From IMG/VR virus record IMGVR_UViG_2529292919_000020: a stretch of 15,934 nucleotides of DNA; one strand, written 5' to 3'. The notes under the pieces are model-generated. The model was given only the letters and a program-made list of their open reading frames with translations. It had not been told where the DNA came from and ran no database searches. The translations under genes were made by a program, and so were the position numbers. Every line of letters begins with the position of its first letter. Position 1 is the first letter of the stretch. Origin of the DNA: a virus. Taxonomy: Duplodnaviria > Heunggongvirae > Uroviricota > Caudoviricetes. Positions 1-15,934 of the stretch are shown here, in pieces.

Positions 1-1230
1 ATGAGCAGAGCACTTAACAAACTGAGCGATACACAGCTGAGGAAAATCAACGGCACACCCGCCCAAAAAACAGCCTTTCTTAATGACGGTGGAAACCTGA
101 GCGTCAGGCATTCAACCAGCGGCCTTTTAACCTGGTATTTCACTTACAGGGCCGGAACGGGAAGGGGGGCACCACCGGAACGCATTAAGCTGGGAAATTA
201 TCCTGATCTGAGCCTGAAATCAGCCAGGGAAAAAGCCGCCCAGTGTCGCGCATGGCTGGCTGAGGGGAAAAATCCACGTCATGAGATGAATTACACCGTA
301 CAGGAAGCGTTAAAGCCGGTAACGGTTGGCGATGCGCTCACCTACTGGCTTGAGTCGTACGCAAAGGAAAACCGTGTAGATTATGACCCACTGAAAAAGC
401 GGCTAAATAATCACGTAATACAGCACATTGGCTCTATGCCGCTGGATAAATGCGAGCTACGGCACTGGCTGGCCTGTTTTGATCGGGTGGCAAAGCAAGC
501 CCCTGTTTCCGCCGGGTTCCTGCTACAGACATGCAAACAGGCGCTTAAGTTCTGCCGGAAGCGGCGCTATGCAATCAGCAACGTTCTTGATGATATGAGT
601 GTGGCTGACGTTGGGAAAAAACCGGATATAAGCGAACGTGTCTTAAGCAATAAAGAACTGGGCGAATTATTGCAGACACTGGACAAAAAAATATTTTCCC
701 CTTACTACGTCGCACTAATCCGCCTCCTGATTGTTTTCGGATGCCGGACAGTAGAACTGAGATTATCGGAGATCGGCGAGTGGGATTTTACCGAAATGCT
801 CTGGACTGTTCCGAAGGAGCACAGCAAAACGAAGGTAGCCATATTCCGGCCCATACCGGAAGCGATACTGCCGTTCGTCACGCAGCTGGTGGAGCAGAAC
901 AGGCACACGGGCTTATTGCTGGGGGAAGTGAAACAGGAAACCAGCGTATCGCAGTACGGCAGATTGGTGCACAGGAGGCTTAAACACCCTCACTGGTCAT
1001 TGCATGACATCCGGCGCACCTTTACAACGATGCTGAACGATTTAGGCGTGGATCCTCACGTCGTGGAGCAGCTTACAGGACACCAGATGCCAGGGATGCA
1101 ACGAGTCTATAATCACTCCCGTTATCTGGATGCGAAACGCAATGCGCTGGATATGTGGACGGAGCGGTTAGGGATACTGGCGGGAGCACATGAAAACGTA
1201 ACCACGCTATCAGTAGCCAGAAGAAAATAA
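1..1230 (+). CDS. int: Tyrosine recombinase / integrase, P4-type (N-terminal arm-binding-like domain plus C-terminal catalytic domain)
   Basis: 409-aa ORF starting at ATG at position 1. The N-terminus (LSDTQLRKI...NDGGNLSVRHS...TWYFTYR...LGNYPDLSLKSAREKA) resembles the arm-DNA-binding domain of P4-like integrases. The C-terminus carries the tyrosine-recombinase signature (HDIRRTF...LTGHQ...RVYNHSRY). The ORF begins exactly at the window edge, so an upstream extension and attL cannot be assessed. Confidence 0.9.
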   Translation: MSRALNKLSDTQLRKINGTPAQKTAFLNDGGNLSVRHSTSGLLTWYFTYRAGTGRGAPPERIKLGNYPDLSLKSAREKAAQCRAWLAEGKNPRHEMNYTVQEALKPVTVGDALTYWLESYAKENRVDYDPLKKRLNNHVIQHIGSMPLDKCELRHWLACFDRVAKQAPVSAGFLLQTCKQALKFCRKRRYAISNVLDDMSVADVGKKPDISERVLSNKELGELLQTLDKKIFSPYYVALIRLLIVFGCRTVELRLSEIGEWDFTEMLWTVPKEHSKTKVAIFRPIPEAILPFVTQLVEQNRHTGLLLGEVKQETSVSQYGRLVHRRLKHPHWSLHDIRRTFTTMLNDLGVDPHVVEQLTGHQMPGMQRVYNHSRYLDAKRNALDMWTERLGILAGAHENVTTLSVARRK

Positions 1231-1286
1231 TTTTTTTCGTGTTTTTTCAGTATGCGCATACTGGATAAGCACACAGATACAACGGC

Positions 1287-1322
1287 GAACAATGTGAAAC
1301 AACGTGGAACAACCACGAACAA
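1287..1322. promoter_or_regulatory. Four GAACAA units phased at exactly 10 bp (starts 1287, 1297, 1307, 1317): candidate binding array for an AlpA/Xis-type or integrase arm-binding protein
   Basis: Direct reading: cGAACAAtgtGAAACAAcgtgGAACAAccacGAACAAg. The reverse complement shares 18 identical nt with 7335..7352 and with 14335..14352. Position is between the int stop and the alpA start. Confidence 0.5.
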
Positions 1323-1605
1323 GAGGCGAAAAAGCACACAGGTTTATAAGTGACTGATTTTATTTGTATGACTGGTTTTTTATACATTAGCGAATAACGC
1401 TTTAACGCGTGAGAAAAAAGGCGTAAAACGAGATTTTATGCCTTTGTATTAATATGAATTTAAATGATTTTATCCTGATTGTTCCTCTTTCTGTAAACCA
1501 TACGGACTCAACATTTGCCAACGCTGAATCATCCTGACACAATCAGACACAACCCAACCCAATAACCCACCCAATGACTCTTTAAGAAACAACAAAGGGG
1601 GAATT

Positions 1606-1794
1606 GTGTTAAGCACAGATCGCTTTATACGTGAAAAAGAATGTCAGCAACTTACAGGCCTGAGCCGCTCATGTCGGTATCGCCTGGAGAAGACTGGACA
1701 ATTCCCATCACGGCGTAAACTCGGCGGTCGTTCCGTTGGCTGGTCTTTATCCGAAGTTCTGGCATGGAAGGACAGCCGCGAGGCAGTTCACTAA
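1606..1794 (+). CDS. alpA: AlpA-family (Xis/Vis-like winged-helix) transcriptional regulator
   Basis: 62-aa ORF with GTG start preceded by a strong Shine-Dalgarno (AAGGGGGAA). The motif ...CQQLTGLSRSCRYRLEKTGQFPSRRKLGGRSVGWSLSEVLAW... matches the AlpA pattern (L-TGLSRST-YRL---G-FP-P-KLG-R-V-W---EV--W). Confidence 0.85.
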   Translation: MLSTDRFIREKECQQLTGLSRSCRYRLEKTGQFPSRRKLGGRSVGWSLSEVLAWKDSREAVH

Positions 1795-3421: not shown

Positions 3422-3709
3422 ATGAAAAATAAAAATTCTGGCTTTACTGCCAGCGGCCCCGCTCGGCCTGAAATCCGCCCCGGCGATATTTTCCGGGATA
3501 ACTATGGCGGCACGGTAACGATAAAAGGCGTGGCAGAACGGCGCATCACTTACCGCCGTGATGGCTACGAATATGACTGCGTGATGCCTGTTTATCAGTT
3601 CCGGCGTGATTTCACGCTGGTGGGCCATCGTAAAGCCGTAAATCAGAAACGTGCAGCAAGTCATATCCGCAAAATTCGTGAAATGCTGGTCGCAGGGGGT
3701 AAAAAATGA
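3422..3709 (+). CDS. Hypothetical basic protein (95 aa), translationally coupled to the replication initiator
   Basis: ORF-track ORF. Its stop overlaps the start of the downstream gene in an ATGA arrangement (3706..3709). Confidence 0.55.
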   Translation: MKNKNSGFTASGPARPEIRPGDIFRDNYGGTVTIKGVAERRITYRRDGYEYDCVMPVYQFRRDFTLVGHRKAVNQKRAASHIRKIREMLVAGGKK

Positions 3710-5520
3710 AACTGGCACCGAACGTAAAACAGCAGTTACGCGGCATAAAACACAAAGAAACAGAAGTCATTATTTTTGCGGGTAGTGATGCCTGGTCACA
3801 CGCAAAACAATGGCAGGAACATGACGCGCGTATGGCCGGAGATAATGAGCCTCCTGTGTGGCTTGGGGAGCAGCAGTTATCCGAACTGGATAAGCTGCAA
3901 ATTGTGCCGGAAGGCAGAAAATCCGTGCGCATATTCAGGGCCGGATATCTTGCGCCAGTAATGATAAAGGCGATTGGTCAGAAGCTGGCGGCGGCAGGCG
4001 TACAGGATGCAAATTTTTATCCTGAGGGTATGCACGGCCAGGAGGTGCAGAACTGGCGCGAATATCTGGCCCGTGAGCGCCAGAATCTTTCTGATGGTCT
4101 GGTGATTCAGCTTCCTGTTAAGAAAAAAACAGAAGACAGCGCCGCACCACTGGCGCTTAACCAGATGGGAGCAAGCCAGCGCGGCGAAGTTCTCCTGGCA
4201 CATTATGGCGGTGAACTGGCGATTCATGCCGACTCTGACACTGTTCACCATTACAACGGCGTTGTATGGGAGCCGATTCAGGATAAAGAGTTACAGCGTG
4301 CTATGGCGCAGATTTTCATTGATGCGGAGATCAGCTATTCGCAGAACGCCATTAAATCGGCGGTCGATACCATGAAGTTAAGTTTGCCTGTAATGGGGAA
4401 TACAGCCCGTAACCTGATTGGATTCAGTAACGGGGTATTTGATACCAGAACAGGTAATTTTCGGGAGCATAACAAAAACGACTGGTTGTTAATTGCCAGT
4501 GAATTACCTTTCAGCCCACCAGCAGAGGGGGAAACGCTGGCAACACATGCGCCGAATTTCTGGAAGTGGTTACGCCGCTCGGTGGCAGAGAATGACCGCA
4601 AGACGGATCGCGTGCTGGCTGCATTATTCATGGTGCTGGCGAACCGGTACGACTGGCAGTTATTCATTGAGGTAACAGGTCCAGGGGGAAGTGGTAAAAG
4701 CGTGATGGCGGAGATTTGCACCATGCTGGCGGGTAAGGCCAACACAGTATCGGCAAGCATGAAGGCGCTGGAAGATGCAAGGGAACGCGCGTTAGTGGTT
4801 GGCTTTTCGCTGATTATCATGCCGGATATGACCCGCTACGCTGGTGATGGCGCAGGAATTAAGGCCATTACAGGCGGTGACAAGGTGGCAATCGACCCGA
4901 AGCATAAAGCCCCCTACTCAACACGCATTCAGGCGGTCGTGCTGGCGGTGAACAATAACGCCATGTCATTCAGTGACCGCAGCGGGGGGATCTCACGTCG
5001 TCGGGTGATATTCAATTTTTCGGAGGTTGTACCGGAGAACGAGCGCGACCCCATGCTGGCAGAAAAAATAGAAGGAGAGCTGGCGGTTGTGATTCGCCAT
5101 CTGCTTACTCGTTTTTCTGACCAGGACGAAGCTAAACGCCTGCTGTATGAGCAGCAGAAATCAGAAGAAGCTCTGGTGATAAAACGCGAGGGCGATTCGC
5201 TGGTGGACTTCTGTGGCTATCTCATGTCGTCGGTAATGTGTGATGGTCTGTTAGTGGGTAATGCCGAAATTATTCCGTTCAGTCCGCGCAGGTATCTTTA
5301 TCACGCCTATCTGGCATATATGAGGGCACACGGATTCGGTAAACCTGTAACACTGACGCGCTTCGGTAAAGATATGCCGGGGGCAATGGCGGAATATGGC
5401 AGGGAGTATATAAAACGGAAAACGAAGCACGGTTTGCGTTCAAATGTGACACTGACAGAGGATTCAGAAGACTGGATGCCATCATGTGCATCGGTCACAA
5501 ATGACGACAGCAAAAATTAA
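3706..5520 (+). CDS. Replication initiator (pri-rep) with P4-alpha-like C-terminal SF3 helicase / origin-binding region; N-terminal ~200 aa of unassigned family
   Basis: 604-aa ORF with strong SD (CAGGGGG). Walker A GPGGSGKS, followed by a region resembling the phage/plasmid primase P4-family C-terminal (D5-like) helicase domain. Sits immediately upstream of an iteron array. Confidence 0.85.
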   Translation: MKLAPNVKQQLRGIKHKETEVIIFAGSDAWSHAKQWQEHDARMAGDNEPPVWLGEQQLSELDKLQIVPEGRKSVRIFRAGYLAPVMIKAIGQKLAAAGVQDANFYPEGMHGQEVQNWREYLARERQNLSDGLVIQLPVKKKTEDSAAPLALNQMGASQRGEVLLAHYGGELAIHADSDTVHHYNGVVWEPIQDKELQRAMAQIFIDAEISYSQNAIKSAVDTMKLSLPVMGNTARNLIGFSNGVFDTRTGNFREHNKNDWLLIASELPFSPPAEGETLATHAPNFWKWLRRSVAENDRKTDRVLAALFMVLANRYDWQLFIEVTGPGGSGKSVMAEICTMLAGKANTVSASMKALEDARERALVVGFSLIIMPDMTRYAGDGAGIKAITGGDKVAIDPKHKAPYSTRIQAVVLAVNNNAMSFSDRSGGISRRRVIFNFSEVVPENERDPMLAEKIEGELAVVIRHLLTRFSDQDEAKRLLYEQQKSEEALVIKREGDSLVDFCGYLMSSVMCDGLLVGNAEIIPFSPRRYLYHAYLAYMRAHGFGKPVTLTRFGKDMPGAMAEYGREYIKRKTKHGLRSNVTLTEDSEDWMPSCASVTNDDSKN

Positions 5521-5530
5521 ACTTATGGAA

Positions 5531-5760
5531 TAACTGTTCACCACTGTTCACCCTGTGATAAATATCTTTTATATCAGTACATTATAGGGTGAACAGTTAT
5601 TTGTGAACTGTTCACCAAACTATTCACTGTTCACCTTTTTGATTATTTATTGAGCTTTAAGGGTGAACAGTGGTGAACAGTTGGTGAATAGTTTTTGTGA
5701 AACTGTTCACCCCTTAACATTATGAATAAAAAGGGAAAATCTCAAAAGGTGAACAGGTGA
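5531..5760. repeat. Replication origin iterons: about ten copies of CTGTTCACC / GGTGAACAG in both orientations, with an adjacent AT-rich tract
   Basis: Forward copies start at 5534, 5545, 5608, 5627, 5703. Inverted copies start at 5588, 5662, 5672, 5748, plus a degenerate GGTGAATAG at 5683. Neighbouring copies are 10-11 bp apart. AT-rich AAAAATTTTATTTTATT at about 5774..5790. The core TGTTCACC is the octamer I recall as the alpha-binding iteron of P4 ori1/crr. Confidence 0.8.
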
Positions 5761-5853: not shown

Positions 5854-6054
5854 TTGACAGAACACTGGCTGAGGGTGGCGATAAAAATCATCGACCGCAA
5901 CGCGGGAGAAGGGTACGCAAAAGCACATCCCGAACTGATAAGCGCATTCATGACCACGGCGGCGGCAAACTTTGCCACGCTGACAGAACGGGAGATTGCC
6001 GAAGCGGAACAGGTGACAACCATCAACGTTAAAACCGGAGAGCAGACAGCATGA
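5854..6054 (+). CDS. Hypothetical small protein (start uncertain: TTG at 5854 or GTG at 5875)
   Basis: ORF-track ORF. Its stop overlaps the SSB start (ATGA at 6051..6054), suggesting coupling. No convincing RBS and no recognisable motif. Confidence 0.35.
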   Translation: MTEHWLRVAIKIIDRNAGEGYAKAHPELISAFMTTAAANFATLTEREIAEAEQVTTINVKTGEQTA

Positions 6055-6512: not shown

Positions 6513-7043
6513 ATGACAACGCTGACCATTAACCGGAAGCCGAAAGGCATTTACGGCACGCCGCAGAAAACGACGCAGGCGGCGCAAGAGCAGGATAAAA
6601 CCACATCGGCGCATAAAGTGATACCCGGCAATCAGAACGCACAGCAGAAGCCCACAGGGGCGACACCGTGGCAGCATATGACCAAAAGGCAGCGCAAAAA
6701 CCGCCGACGCGTTAACCGCCTCACTGAGATGTGGCCTGACTTATTCAGCCATAAAGCACCGAAGCCGCTTAAGGTGGGGATATTCGACGACCTGATGCAG
6801 GATATCGCCGTCAGGGGGCTGGCATTCGGGCCGGGGGTATTACGTGCGACGCTGGCATCCTATGCGCAGTCTCCGCGCTATTACCGCGCCCTGATAGCTG
6901 GTGGCGCACGTTACGACCTGAAAGGCCAGCCATGTGGGGAAGTGACACCACAGGAACAGCAGGAGGCAGAAACACGGCTGATGGTGCTGAATGAGAAGCA
7001 CAAGCGCCAGCGCCGGGCAGCAAAGGGGGATACATGCCAGTGA
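6513..7043 (+). CDS. ProQ/FinO-domain RNA-binding protein
   Basis: 176 aa with strong SD (GGGGAAGG). ...WPDLFSHKAPKPLKVGIFDDLMQDIA...LRATLASYAQSPRYYRALIAGGARYDLKGQPCGEVTPQEQQEA matches the ProQ N-terminal / FinO fold signature (PLKIGIF-DL ... LR-AL--Y--S-RY ... R-DL-G-PCGE). Confidence 0.8.
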   Translation: MTTLTINRKPKGIYGTPQKTTQAAQEQDKTTSAHKVIPGNQNAQQKPTGATPWQHMTKRQRKNRRRVNRLTEMWPDLFSHKAPKPLKVGIFDDLMQDIAVRGLAFGPGVLRATLASYAQSPRYYRALIAGGARYDLKGQPCGEVTPQEQQEAETRLMVLNEKHKRQRRAAKGDTCQ

Positions 7044-7282: not shown

Positions 7283-7290
7283 AGCGATAA

Positions 7291-7319
7291 AGGCCCGGAT
7301 TTTTTCCGGGCCTTTTTTC
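7291..7319 (+). terminator. Rho-independent terminator closing the replication/accessory operon
   Basis: Stem GGCCCGGA (7292..7299) pairing with TCCGGGCC (7305..7312), followed by TTTTTT (7313..7318). Confidence 0.7.
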
Positions 7320-7336
7320 AGGTTTTGTAAATTATT

Positions 7337-7362
7337 TGTTCGTGGTTGTTCCAGGTTGTTCG
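7337..7362. promoter_or_regulatory. Three TTGTTC units phased at exactly 10 bp (starts 7337, 7347, 7357) upstream of the capsid operon: candidate activator-binding site for late/packaging gene expression
   Basis: Direct reading: tTTGTTCgtggTTGTTCcaggTTGTTCgg. An 18-nt exact match to the reverse complement of 1304..1321. Lies just after the terminator and about 195 bp upstream of the major capsid gene start. Confidence 0.5.
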
Positions 7363-7555
7363 GTGATTCTGGTTGATGTTTACATACTGATTTTTATGTA
7401 TATGTTGGCGTGTGGCACTCAGACGTGAGCCGCCACAATGCCGCCTGACCCCCTGCGCGATGCCGGGTTGATCTGCGAGATGCCGAGAGTGTCGGGCGGC
7501 GCTCCCCCCGTGTTGGTTTCACGTCCTGAATCTTAACCAATGCGAGAAAACCTTC

Positions 7556-11907: not shown

Positions 11908-13552
11908 GTACGCAGAAGGCGTAAAAAACGGCAAAATTACGGCCTGTAAACGACTGAAACAGGCCGTTAAACGGTATTTTTCTGACCTTGAAAACCCCCT
12001 TTACACGTTCGATCCGGAGGTCGTGGAGCGGTTTATTGCCTTTTCCAGGGTGTGTCCGCACGTAAAAGGCGCAATGCGCGGTAGCCCCATTGAGCTGGAG
12101 CCGTGGCAGCAGTTCGCCTTTGCGTGCATCCTGGGCTTTAAGGTTAAGGCCACCGGACGGCGCAAATACACCAGCGCATTCATTGAAGTGCCGCGAAAAA
12201 ATGCCAAATCCACGGTCGCCGCTATCCTGGCTAACTGGTTTCTGGTTATGGAAAACGGGCAGCAGGATATTTACACCGCCGTCGTGAGTCGTGATCAGGC
12301 GCGGATCGTGTTTGATGATGCGCGTCAGATGTGCCTTTTATCCCGACCGTTACGAAAGCGGGTAAATATTCAGGCACACAAGGTGATACACCCGAAAACC
12401 AACAGCCTGTTAAAGCCACTGGCAGCAAAAGCGGCAACCATTGAAGGTACAAACCCGAGTCTTGCCATTGTGGATGAATATCACCTGCACCCTGACAACG
12501 GGGTTTATTCCGCGCTTGAACTGGGAATGGGGGCGCGTCCGGAGGGGCTGTTATTTGCCATCACCACATCGGGGAGCAACGTTGTTTCAGCCTGTAAACA
12601 ACACTACGACTATTGCTGCCAGATACTGGATGGTGAAGAGGTGAACGAATCCATGTTCGTGCTGATTTACGAGCTGGATGATGAAAGCGAGGTTGACGAT
12701 CCGGCGATGTGGATAAAGGCGAATCCCAATATCGATGTTTCCGTCGATCGTGAAAAACTGGCCTCAACCATCCAGAAAGCGCGGGGTATTCCGTCGCAGT
12801 GGGTGGAAATGCTCACCAAGCGATTCAATATCTGGTGTCAGGGGGCCACGCCGTGGATGGGTAACGGTGCATGGGCGGAGTGCGCCGGAACGTTCGCGGA
12901 GGCGGATTTATACGGTCAGGAGTGCTACGCGGGGCTGGACTTATCATCAACCAGCGATATTTCCAGCGTGTGCTATGCCTTTCCGGTCGGTAAAAAGATT
13001 ATGCTGGTTTCCCGTCACTATCTGCCGGAATTTCAGCTACAGAACCCCGCCAATAAAAACCGCGCCATCTATCGCCAGTGGGTAAAGGCGGGCTGGATAC
13101 GCACAACACCGGGTGACTGCATTGATTATGACCGTATCCGTGATGACATCATGGCGGATGCAGAGAATTTCAATATCAGGCTGGTGGGCTTCGATACATG
13201 GAACGCCACGCACCTGAGGACGCAGCTACAGGGGGCAGGATTTGAGGTGGAGCCGTTCCCGCAAACATACCTTCGTTTCAGTCCGGCGGCGAAATCGTTC
13301 GAAGTTTTTGTTAACCGGAAGGTGATTGTGCATCGTGGTGATCCGGTGCTGGCCTGGTCAATGAGTAATGTTGTGATGCAGAGTGACGCGAACGCCAATA
13401 TCAAGCCGAACAAGAAAAAATCATCCAACAAGATAGACCCGAGCGTTGCGGCGCTGATGGCGTTTGGCACATTCCAGGCAGAGCATGAAGATTTTGCCTT
13501 TGATATAAGCGACAGCCACAAAGAGCGGCTTGCGGCGTTTGATGGTGTATAA
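11891..13552 (+). CDS. terL: Terminase large subunit (ATPase/nuclease)
   Basis: 553 aa. The start is probably TTG at 11891, overlapping the terS 3' end by 17 nt; the next in-frame ATG is about 60 codons downstream and would remove the conserved N-terminus (WHEYAEGVKNGKITACKRLKQAVKRY). Walker A-like VPRKNAKST. Length and position typical of terL. Confidence 0.9.
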   Translation: MTAWHEYAEGVKNGKITACKRLKQAVKRYFSDLENPLYTFDPEVVERFIAFSRVCPHVKGAMRGSPIELEPWQQFAFACILGFKVKATGRRKYTSAFIEVPRKNAKSTVAAILANWFLVMENGQQDIYTAVVSRDQARIVFDDARQMCLLSRPLRKRVNIQAHKVIHPKTNSLLKPLAAKAATIEGTNPSLAIVDEYHLHPDNGVYSALELGMGARPEGLLFAITTSGSNVVSACKQHYDYCCQILDGEEVNESMFVLIYELDDESEVDDPAMWIKANPNIDVSVDREKLASTIQKARGIPSQWVEMLTKRFNIWCQGATPWMGNGAWAECAGTFAEADLYGQECYAGLDLSSTSDISSVCYAFPVGKKIMLVSRHYLPEFQLQNPANKNRAIYRQWVKAGWIRTTPGDCIDYDRIRDDIMADAENFNIRLVGFDTWNATHLRTQLQGAGFEVEPFPQTYLRFSPAAKSFEVFVNRKVIVHRGDPVLAWSMSNVVMQSDANANIKPNKKKSSNKIDPSVAALMAFGTFQAEHEDFAFDISDSHKERLAAFDGV

Positions 13553-13557
13553 CGAGA

Positions 13558-13842
13558 GTGAGCGAAACCGAACTACTAAAAATAATCCGCCGCATTACCG
13601 GAATCAGCCAGGAAGCAGGCAAACAGGAGGCCACGCAGCCGGACAGCGTGATAGCCGAAAATTACGCGCGTGTGGTGGCTGAGGTGATGCGCCGTGATGG
13701 TATTGAGCTTAACGGCGTGGATATGCGCTACATACGGATCAGAGTTCTGGAGTTGTTGTCATATCGTCGCCGCGTGGAGATGTACCAGGAGAAAGAAAAA
13801 ATTACTTACCACTGGAAGAAGCCGGAGCGGTTGCGGCGGTAA
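13558..13842 (+). CDS. Hypothetical protein (94 aa) downstream of terL; last ORF of the element
   Basis: ORF-track ORF with GTG start and weak RBS. Charged, helical-looking sequence with no recognisable motif. Its stop codon lies inside the first copy of a 23-nt direct repeat. Confidence 0.4.
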   Translation: MSETELLKIIRRITGISQEAGKQEATQPDSVIAENYARVVAEVMRRDGIELNGVDMRYIRIRVLELLSYRRRVEMYQEKEKITYHWKKPERLRR

Positions 13843-14003
13843 CTGGTTGATATTCCCGACGGTCCAAAAATGGGTTGGCTACACCCCTCACAACTACGAC
13901 ATTTTCGCAGTTTAATTAATGGTCAGCTTAATCGCTAACCCGCTGATATTTTCGGAAACCTCAATTTGAGGAAGTCGGCGCGGTAACTGTTTGATATTCC
14001 CGA
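13837..14003. repeat. 23-nt direct repeat CGGTAACTG(G/T)TTGATATTCCCGA (13837..13859 and 13981..14003, 1 mismatch), part of a diverged ~140-bp tandem duplication
   Basis: Direct reading. A second shared block CTAACCCG(C/T)TGAT occurs at about 13936 and 14069. Confidence 0.5.
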
Positions 14004-14334
14004 TAACGCAAAATTGCGCTGGATGAATGAACATTATGTTACTTATGATTACGCAGATGATTAAGGCCTAACCCGTTGATTCTTCCACAATCCCCCATTG
14101 GGGGAGGCTGGGCGGCCTGCTGTGGGCTTTTCCACCATTGGTGGAAAGGTGCAGATCTGAATCATCATTACGGTGATCAAGGGTATGTAAAACCCACCAG
14201 CCTGATTGACATTTAACCGGAAAAAAAGCCAGGTAGCCCCGTTATGGGGATCCCCATATCGACATTAACGCCCCTCATGAATTGGCGTGCTTTCCCCTGG
14301 AAAGATGACCCGCCTGTATATTTCTTGTGTCTAT

Positions 14335-14391
14335 TTGTTCCACGTTGTTTCATACAGTGCACCGAACGGTGTAGTTAATGGTGTAGTTAAT
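14335..14391. repeat. Third copy of the phased TTGTTC motif (14335..14351, 2 units 10 bp apart) followed by a perfect tandem GGTGTAGTTAAT x2 (14368..14391)
   Basis: 14335..14352 (TTGTTCCACGTTGTTTCA) is an 18-nt exact match to the reverse complement of 1295..1312. The 12-bp tandem duplication was read directly. Confidence 0.45.
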
Positions 14392-14473
14392 TTGCGATTT
14401 TTGGTACTTTTTGTAGTGCAAATTATTTAATTAAATCAATGCCTTATCTTAATTTAGTGATAAAAGGACATAT

Positions 14474-15934
14474 TTATTCATCTTTCGGCGCAGAATGCTG
14501 GCGACCAAAAATCACCTCCATCCGCGCACCGCCCAGCATGCTCTCTCCGGCGACGATTTTACCCTCATATTGCTCGGTGATTTCGCGGGCTACGGCCAGC
14601 CCCACACCTTGCCCAGGGCGTAAAGTATCAACCCGTTGACCACGGTCGAAAATGACCTCTCGCTTGCTTAATGGAATACCGGGGCCATCATCCTCGACCA
14701 CAATATAGAGATGCTCGTCGGTTTGCCTTGCAGAAATTTCGACAAACTCGAGGCAATATTTACAGGCGTTATCCAGCACGTTGCCCATCACTTCGACAAA
14801 ATCATTCTGCTCACCAACAAAGCTGATTTCTGGCGAGATATCGAGATAGATATTGACCCCTTTGCGTTGATACACTTTGTTCAGCGCCGAGGTGAGATTG
14901 TCCAACAGTGGGGCGACCGGATGCAGCTCGCGGCTAAGCAATGTCCCGCCGCGCATACTGGCACGATGCAGGTAGTAGCCAATTTGCTGTGAAATGCGGC
15001 TGATTTGCTCCAGCATTACCGGCTCAGCATCACTGACGCTCATCTTCTCACTACGCAGAGAACGCAGCGTACTTTGCAGCACCGCCAGTGGTGTTTTCAG
15101 ACTATGGGTCAGGTCGGTGAGCGTCGTACGATATTTGTCGTAACGTTCGCGTTCACTTTTTAACAGTCGGTTCAGGTTTCGTACCAGACTGGTCAGTTCT
15201 CGCGTTGTGGCTGGATTGAGCAATTCACGGTTATGTTCTTCCAGTTCGCGGACTTCTTTTGCCAGGGCTTCGATGGGGCGTAAACTCCACCAGGCGGCGA
15301 CCCACAGCAGCGGGATCACTAACAGCAGATTGGCTGAGAGCACATAGATAAACCAGCTCCAGACCATATAGGAACTTTTTAGCTCCACCGGAATGGTATC
15401 CACCACCACAATGGTTAACTTTGGCATCCGCGATGTTGCCGGGTAGACGTTTACCGCCACCGAGTGGGTCATCTCCGCGTCGTCATCATCTTCCCGCACT
15501 TCCTGCAACTGTTGCTGTATCGAATGATCTCCACTCAGCAAGAGGCTGGTATCGTTAACATCCGCTTCAATTTCATGAAAACCATTCGATTTCAGCCAGT
15601 CAGGCTGGATCATCTTCATCAGCCAGGGCACGTCACGTTGCGCCCATAAAAGCTGCCCGTTCTCATCATAAATTAGTGTCATCGTGGGGCTTTGCTTGTC
15701 GATATTTTCGGGTAACTCGACATGCAACTTATTGTTTTCCCACTTCGCAAGGGTATAGAACAGATTGCTCTCGCCACGTAACAGCCGAAACGTGGTTTTA
15801 TCGAAACTGACGCTATAACCGATCAGCGCAACCATTCCGTAGGCAAGCGAAAGCACCAATACTACTGCTGCCGTTGCTAACAGAAAACGTACCCGCAGCG
15901 AGAGCGGGAAAAAAAGATGCAGTAATTTTTTCAT
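14474..15934 (-). CDS. phoQ: Sensor histidine kinase PhoQ (PhoP/PhoQ two-component system)
   Basis: 486-aa ORF. From memory the sequence is near-identical to E. coli PhoQ ([76 protein letters not shown]... ending ...[10 protein letters not shown]). Periplasmic acidic patch EDDDDAE, HAMP, phosphoacceptor His in [12 protein letters not shown], and ATPase G-boxes. The start codon is at the window edge. Confidence 0.95.

Follow-up and report, generated by a model that had tools for sequence, protein, structure and literature searches.

Introduction

Recombination directionality factors that also regulate transcription from phased repeats are an established class of mechanism. The Apl protein of coliphage 186 recognises direct repeats spaced by one helical turn, both at att and at promoters (PMC7498355). 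The sites of 186 Apl and P2 Cox resemble the arrays described below, named T1, in that short helical-turn repeats of variable copy number, placed at att and at promoters, are served by one small DNA-binding protein. Apl and Cox are the closest functional analogues of the present system, with three differences: they belong to another protein family, they repress early promoters whereas AlpA of the PICIs is an activator, and their binding has been demonstrated whereas that of AlpA to T1 is what we infer here. The att sites of Apl and Cox lie in one arm, unlike those of the island studied here, both arms of which carry arrays.

Lambda Xis (with its X1-X1.5-X2 microfilament) and TorI of KplE1 are winged-helix factors that oligomerise on close repeats beside Int arm sites. 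The Xis sites of lambda occupy one arm only, against both arms here, and we know of no array at a structural-gene promoter in the lambda Xis, TorI or RdfS systems. RdfS, encoded by ICEMlSym, is itself a winged-helix directionality factor, described as oligomerising on close direct repeats by the Int arm sites (PMC11963761). The AlpA antiterminator of Pseudomonas aeruginosa shares the name and exerts positive control on a lysis/late operon through a promoter-linked element, the ABE, with terminators downstream; the ABE is a single element within the promoter, not a phased array.

The AlpA proteins of CP4-57 and CP4So and the Vis protein of P4 belong to PF05930, as does AlpA of the present island, and genetic evidence ties members of this AlpA/Vis family to excision and to the regulation of int or of late functions. 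CP4-57, when examined, contained no phased TTGT arrays, only 12-bp doublets of another word. EcCICFT073 and EcCIEDL933 are of the same island family as ours and use the same roxA-phoQ att site; their induction requires AlpA, which also activates a fragment with its own promoter. The papers on these islands (Fillol-Salom 2018; cf-PICI preprint 2022) describe no operator, and our literature searches brought up no account of an operator for AlpA in any PICI. With EcCICFT073, a PalpA-lacZ fusion was activated by AlpA and a Pint-lacZ fusion was not, in reporter tests that the strain table assigns to DH5alpha, a strain free of PICIs and phages; overexpression of AlpA alone led to excision and replication, for which int and pri were needed, and alpA is induced by a helper-phage factor (Fillol-Salom 2018).

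Results

A capsid-forming PICI between roxA and phoQ

The window, that is the whole stretch of 15,934 nucleotides analysed (IMG/VR record IMGVR_UViG_2529292919_000020), is a capsid-forming PICI (cf-PICI) satellite inserted between roxA and phoQ, and a close relative of the studied EcCICFT073. All cf-PICI hallmarks are present, namely int, alpA and pri together with its own capsid, protease, portal, connector, HNH, TerS and TerL genes, tail genes being absent; this gene set agrees with the description of EcCIEDL933 (cf-PICI preprint 2022). The capsid is of the HK97 type and the protease a prohead protease. Further genes encode a DUF4222 protein, a D5-type primase-helicase, an SSB and a ProQ/FinO protein. 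The features first needed are as follows.

1..1230, plus strand: int, tyrosine integrase with an Arm-DNA-bind_3 N-terminal domain
1606..1794, plus strand: alpA, 62 aa, winged-helix regulator of PF05930 (E=2.7e-18), candidate binder of T1
14466..14475: att core GGACATATTT, which overlaps the stop codon of phoQ and forms the right boundary of the island

In a near-identical E. coli locus (L001) the island is found between roxA and phoQ, and the window itself ends in phoQ. The empty site of K-12 reads GTGAAGTAT-GGGCATATTT-ATTCATC, from which the att core was deduced to be GG(G/A)CATATTT. As the window begins at the ATG of int, the attL arm is not part of it. An Rfam search of the window gave no match.

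Phased arrays in the window

We use T1 for the phased TTGTTC units and T2 for a 12-bp tandem doublet described further below. Three T1 arrays were found in the window.

1273..1322, minus strand: site A, five phased units TTGTTCGTGG TTGTTCCACG TTGTTTCACA TTGTTCGCCG TTGTATCTGT, 43-92 bp past the int stop
7325..7365, plus strand: site B, TTGTTCGTGG TTGTTCCAGG TTGTTCGGTG at 7336-7365, preceded 11 bp upstream by TTGTAA
14325..14354, plus strand: site C, attR-arm array TTGTGTCTAT TTGTTCCACG TTGTTTCATA

Site A consists of five TTGT-core units with a period of exactly 10 bp, which on the plus strand read ATACAA (1277), GAACAA (1287), AAACAA (1297), GAACAA (1307) and GAACAA (1317). A sequence-only reading of the window had reported four GAACAA units at 10-bp phasing. 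The exact period holds, but only three units are GAACAA: the one at 1297 reads AAACAA (with a G at 1296, so GAAACAA), and the fifth unit, ATACAA at 1277, had been missed. Both further places named in that reading do carry the motif, with corrected limits: at site B, given as 7337..7362 and thus one base off, TTGTTC starts at 7336, 7346 and 7356, and the right-end copy, given as 14335-14351, extends over 14325-14354. The 18-nt identities between copies were correct, TTGTTCGTGGTTGTTCCA being common to site A (reverse complement) and site B, and TTGTTCCACGTTGTTTCA to site A (reverse complement) and site C. Sites B and C are on the plus strand and are therefore inverted relative to site A.

Taken alone, the hexamer occurs in the window at chance level (14 observed, 11.3 expected). 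The phased pair TTGTTY-N4-TTGTTY has 10 matches where 0.69 are expected, a number reached in none of 200 shuffles, and three phased TTGT units have 5 matches against 0.00 expected. One isolated phased pair, GAACAAGGGAAAACAA at 2094-2109, lies inside the 1847-2614 ORF; it is probably due to chance, as it was not seen there in the islands checked.

Conservation across related islands

The comparison covered about 75 related loci from E. coli genomes and IMG/VR contigs, with AlpA 87-100% identical, Int 83-100% identical and widely different replication proteins. Every locus was scanned for at least three phased TTGT units. Apart from one stray match in L017, such arrays were found almost only at four homologous places.

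50-90 bp before int, outside the window: attL-arm array
minus strand, 30-90 bp past the int stop: site A, with 3-6 units
plus strand, 190-215 bp upstream of the capsid start: site B
attR arm, plus strand in the window: attR-arm array (site C)

About 75 related islands thus keep the motif at equivalent positions; absence of such conservation had been named beforehand as a ground for abandoning the proposed reading, and it is not what we observed. A single recognition word is common to all sites, in line with the earlier proposal of one protein for all of them. The 53 distinct units collected give the consensus TTGT-T-C-(C/G)-NNN, in which only positions 5-10 are informative because the TTGT core was imposed by the search.

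Site A was present, with 3-6 units, in all related islands having an AlpA of the window type. When its variants are aligned, the ACAA cores are nearly invariant and the spacers variable, two sequences having one broken unit each. In L057 (1261-1320) one 10-bp unit of site A is exactly duplicated (TTGTTGCTCA), which indicates that the array grows by whole helical turns. Site B was found in 59 of the 59 capsid-bearing loci with enough upstream sequence; together with the preceding TTGTAAATTAT it forms the sole block that two capsid lineages have in common in this intergenic region, the rest of which has diverged between them. No site B was seen in the classical PICIs with an identical AlpA (L007, CFT073), and no clear site A in islands with AlpA type 2.

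Other searches were of limited yield. A search of genome contigs with AlpA returned 3 loci only. An alignment of eight AlpA sequences proved too diverse for locus search, and a narrower one mostly found the same contigs again, adding a clade whose Int is 66% identical. When the whole collection was searched for three phased TTGTTC units, most matches were unrelated tandem repeats of other viruses; PICI recombinants were also among them.

T1 and T2 in the att arms

The fourth T1 array was read in L001, where the 90 bp preceding int contain it as TTGTTCCAGC TTGTTTCACG TTGTAGCCCT TTGTGCAACG, followed by GGTGTAGTTAAT GGTGTAGTTAAT (array and doublet 15912-15979, doublet 15956-15979). Being outside the window, it was invisible to the sequence-only reading. 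The same doublet trails site C.

14368..14391, plus strand: T2, 12-bp tandem doublet GGTGTAGTTAAT x2, probable integrase arm-type sites, adjoining site C

Both arms therefore have T1 then T2, co-oriented. The doublet centres are ~91 bp before the core and ~137 bp after it, and the distance from array to doublet is 12-22 bp in the arms, site C standing 13 bp before its doublet. A site C-type array precedes the doublet in every attR examined, and no T2 was found outside the two arms. Site C and its attL twin thus each place a T1 array in an att arm, next to probable integrase arm-type sites, which fits the earlier suggestion that the right-end site acts in recombination directionality. The word of the doublet varies with the N-terminal domain of Int, as listed here by identity of that domain to the window.

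Int N-domain 80-100% (window, L007, L003, CFT073): T2 is GGTGTAGTTAAT
Int N-domain 61% (L269, doublet 664-687; also L137, where the N-domain is cut off): T2 is TGTGTGGTCAGT
Int N-domain 52% (L097, a helper-embedded PICI): T2 is TGTGTATTGCA
Int N-domain 31% (CP4-57; L200 ~790-815 and ~22590-22615): TAGGCCCA-type doublets

T1 stays TTGTTC across Int N-domains that are 61-100% identical, while the adjacent doublet changes. Since only T2 tracks the Int N-domain and is confined to the arms, the doublet is probably the arm-type site of Int, and T1 would belong to another protein.

A doubled motif, tgTGTATTGCantgTGTATTGCa, has been described in both arms of the attP of HE-PICIs, 81 bp and 132 bp from the core; it was reported absent from other PICIs, and its binder was left between the Int arm domains, AlpA and another protein (Mageeney 2023, PMC10111431). 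That motif has the same co-oriented two-arm layout as T2 of the island, and it corresponds to T2, not to T1. Beyond the HE-PICIs, layout-equivalent doublets with other sequences occur in three further Int clades.

Several observations concern the neighbourhood of the att sites. L097 (reverse-complemented) has two PF05930 genes, at 3530-3750 and 3815-4092, one of which runs over the int stop and has the look of a dedicated excisionase gene; the attL arm of L097 carries TTCTGG-N4-TTCTGG in place of phased TTGTTC, and T1 is still found at site B. L002 (15001-16360) holds a remnant at the same att site, in which a truncated int is fused directly to the attR arm and both T1/T2 modules are retained. 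In the window, the segment from the last ORF to attR holds a 43-nt direct repeat (79% identity; 13836-13878 and 13980-14022) that includes GGTAACTGNTTGATATTCCCGA, and related TAACCCGYTGAT words occur nearby and in CFT073. This repeat may be a packaging element (cos or TerS recognition).

Site B and the capsid operon

Site B lies between a terminator and a predicted promoter.

7289..7321, plus strand: intrinsic terminator, hairpin and U-run (-21.7 kcal/mol, z=-3.55), ending the upstream gene block
7379..7406, plus strand: promoter-like site TTTACA-16-TATGTT of the capsid-protease-portal operon (1 found against 0.3 expected; consensus match only)

The hairpin was missed by the terminator scan and confirmed by folding; the other capsid lineage has a different hairpin at the same place. 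As the last unit ends 18 bp before the -35, the units of site B would be at about -88 to -52, which is a class I activator position relative to the predicted promoter. The proposal that this site serves late gene activation is well served by such a location, just past a terminator and 18 bp before a promoter-like -35. A gene for a ProQ/FinO-family RNA-binding protein (6513-7043) is directly upstream of this control region; the protein is 89-100% conserved in some related islands and missing from others.

Site A and the alpA promoter

Two features were noted upstream of alpA.

1515..1543, plus strand: promoter-like site TTGCCA-17-CACAAT, TG-extended (consensus match only)
1537..1562, minus strand: weak units ACACAA, ACACAA and ACCCAA, of the TTGTGT type, with a 10-bp period, overlapping the predicted alpA -10 and start

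TTGCCA is invariant across the aligned variants, and this is the sole conserved promoter-like site for alpA. A second promoter variant (L052, L014) keeps a pair at the same position, GAACAA-N4-ACACAA, a two-unit site that by itself is not statistically significant. Site A is ~200 bp upstream of the predicted alpA promoter, in the orientation opposite to site B, and communication between site A and the promoter by looping, or by way of a second promoter, is possible. It had been suggested that site A controls int expression. Autoactivation of alpA is more probable, because site A is 3' of int and inside the AlpA-activated fragment of EcCICFT073, and Pint is not activated.

Two other elements were seen in the segment between int and alpA. 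A perfect 16-bp palindrome, CAGTATGCGCATACTG (1249-1264), stands between the int stop and site A and is conserved in one of two segment architectures, being absent in the other; a block at 1372-1400, ACTGGTTTTTTATACAYTRGCGAATMAC, is strongly conserved in all variants.

Replication iterons

Just 3' of pri, at 5532-5757, are eight copies of CTGTTCACC/GGTGAACAG, four per orientation. This cluster is likely the replication origin; PICI origins have been reported downstream of pri. The 8-mer core of the iteron matches the type I iteron of P4. The iteron word differs between islands with different replication proteins.

Primases 91-100% identical to that of the window (window, L007): iteron CTGTTCACC
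Primases 48-55% identical (L004, CFT073): iteron CTGTCTACC
RepA-type helicase (L003): iteron AAAGTGGG

T1 is identical while the iterons change with the Rep allele, therefore T1 is not the Rep iteron, despite its likeness to TGTTCACC.

AlpA as the candidate binder of T1

AlpA of the window is 97% identical to that of EcCICFT073, an island with the same att site, the same T1/T2 architecture and a six-unit site A; among solved structures the closest chain to it is 8c3t, an 'AlpA family phage regulatory protein', on which a literature search gave nothing relevant. The published primers were mapped on the EcCICFT073 sequence: the PalpA insert corresponds to L079 13128-13583 (456 bp) and spans site A at 13182-13241. 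The published Pint primers had no exact CFT073 match, so that the Pint fragment is placed only imprecisely. From the DH5alpha tests and the primer mapping taken together, AlpA needs no further protein of island or phage to act on a T1-bearing fragment of 456 bp. Excision that depends on Int and occurs without raised int transcription is moreover as expected of an arm-binding directionality factor. With its 3-6 direct repeats at an exact period of 10 bp, T1 shows the repeat structure of Apl/Cox/Xis-type operator arrays, and its extra copies are found 18 bp before a promoter-like -35 (site B) and in the AlpA-responsive fragment (site A), the promoters being consensus matches only.

Variation within the family says less. 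At position 7 the arm units have C in islands with AlpA of type 1 (helix LSRSCRYRLEKTG) and G in those with type 2 (V[CS]RTTRYELEKKG), whatever the T2/Int type, a signal that is small and not phylogenetically independent; there is no clean co-variation of AlpA and T1, because types 1 and 2 (~61% identical) share the TTGTTC core. In favour of AlpA, L097, with its second PF05930 gene beside int, has a T1-free arm and T1 at site B. Several points stand against it. Directionality factors such as lambda Xis do not typically have arrays on both att arms. In addition, the array of the attL arm is upstream of int, yet Pint is not activated by AlpA in EcCICFT073. Site B is absent in classical PICIs with an identical AlpA, and site A is unclear in type 2 islands. 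Finally, a site A ~200 bp from the predicted promoter and inverted relative to site B is unusual for simple class I activation.

Other readings of the arrays

A functionless repeat, arisen by chance or slippage, could be imagined from the count of the GAACAA hexamer, which by itself is at chance level; phased arrays as in the window were nevertheless reached in 0 of 200 shuffles, and four homologous positions are conserved, one as an isolated conserved block amid diverged DNA, so that this explanation counts as already refuted and deserves practically no credence. The arrays might instead serve replication, as iterons or a crr-like cis element to which the island primase-helicase binds in the way that the alpha protein of P4 binds TGTTCACC. 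The resemblance of TTGTTCCAC to the same-island iteron CTGTTCACC speaks for this, as does the precedent of P4, which has a second iteron cluster, crr, far from ori. Such a role is nonetheless highly improbable: the true cluster, 3' of pri (5532-5757), follows the Rep allele, T1 is constant in all three Rep-allele groups, the island with a RepA-type helicase included, and the iterons are mixed in orientation and without 10-bp phasing.

Binding by the integrase N-terminal domain, which the sequence-only reading had put forward beside AlpA, would make the TTGTTC arrays arm-type sites; they are indeed in both att arms, co-oriented and within ~80-140 bp of the core, Int does have an Arm-DNA-bind_3 domain, and L003 (Int 77% identical) keeps the arm arrays with a degenerate site A. 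That one domain should read two unrelated words is implausible, however, when a separate 12-bp doublet co-varies with the Int N-domain and TTGTTC does not. Sites A and B are moreover not confined to att, being 1.4 kb and 7.5 kb from the attL core at promoter-type positions; L097 keeps site B although its Int is only 43% identical, and CP4-57, with an Int of the same family, has the doublets and lacks phased TTGT arrays. We hold the integrase to be an improbable reader of T1. Some other protein could also be involved, whether a small conserved island protein, the helper-phage inducer, or a host response regulator of the OmpR/PhoB type. The case for AlpA binding is after all indirect, most of these islands have a 66-aa ORF (5854-6054) with 88-100% conservation, induction of alpA involves a helper-phage factor, and phased direct repeats are typical of response regulators: those of the OmpR/PhoB type bind tandem direct repeats, such as the TorR boxes CTGTTCATAT. 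Against this, AlpA alone activates the site A fragment in a strain free of PICIs and phages; the 66-aa ORF has no Pfam match and is missing from L097, which has site B; the known helpers are diverse phages; and arrays that flank the Int arm sites in both arms are what marks a directionality factor encoded by the element. Another reader of this sort thus seems to us unlikely.

Discussion

The best reading of T1 is that it is the operator of AlpA, which would be both excision factor and activator; we regard this as probable, and infer the binding partly by elimination. AlpA would bind T1 head-to-tail, once per helical turn. At the att arms, that is at site C and its twin upstream of int, it would act as recombination directionality factor and let Int excise the island. 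From site A, possibly with the weak units at 1537-1562, it would exert positive feedback on its own promoter, and from site B, just past the terminator, it would activate the weak promoter of the capsid and packaging operon.

A bolder version makes AlpA a single-protein master switch that polymerises on the arrays of both arms, of the alpA promoter and of the capsid operon, thereby coupling excision, feedback and late expression, possibly with antiterminator loading on RNA polymerase in place of classical activation at site B and at the units of the alpA -10. This extension is speculative, and we would give it a small chance of being right.

As an operator of AlpA, the arrays are a candidate four-site regulon for the AlpA-dependent induction of Gram-negative PICIs and cf-PICIs, one that adds the capsid operon and both att arms and by which induction becomes testable. 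The three cis elements separate cleanly, T1 going with AlpA, the doublet with Int and the iterons with Rep, and this separation gives a grammar for annotating and engineering satellites, for example as PICI-based delivery vehicles.
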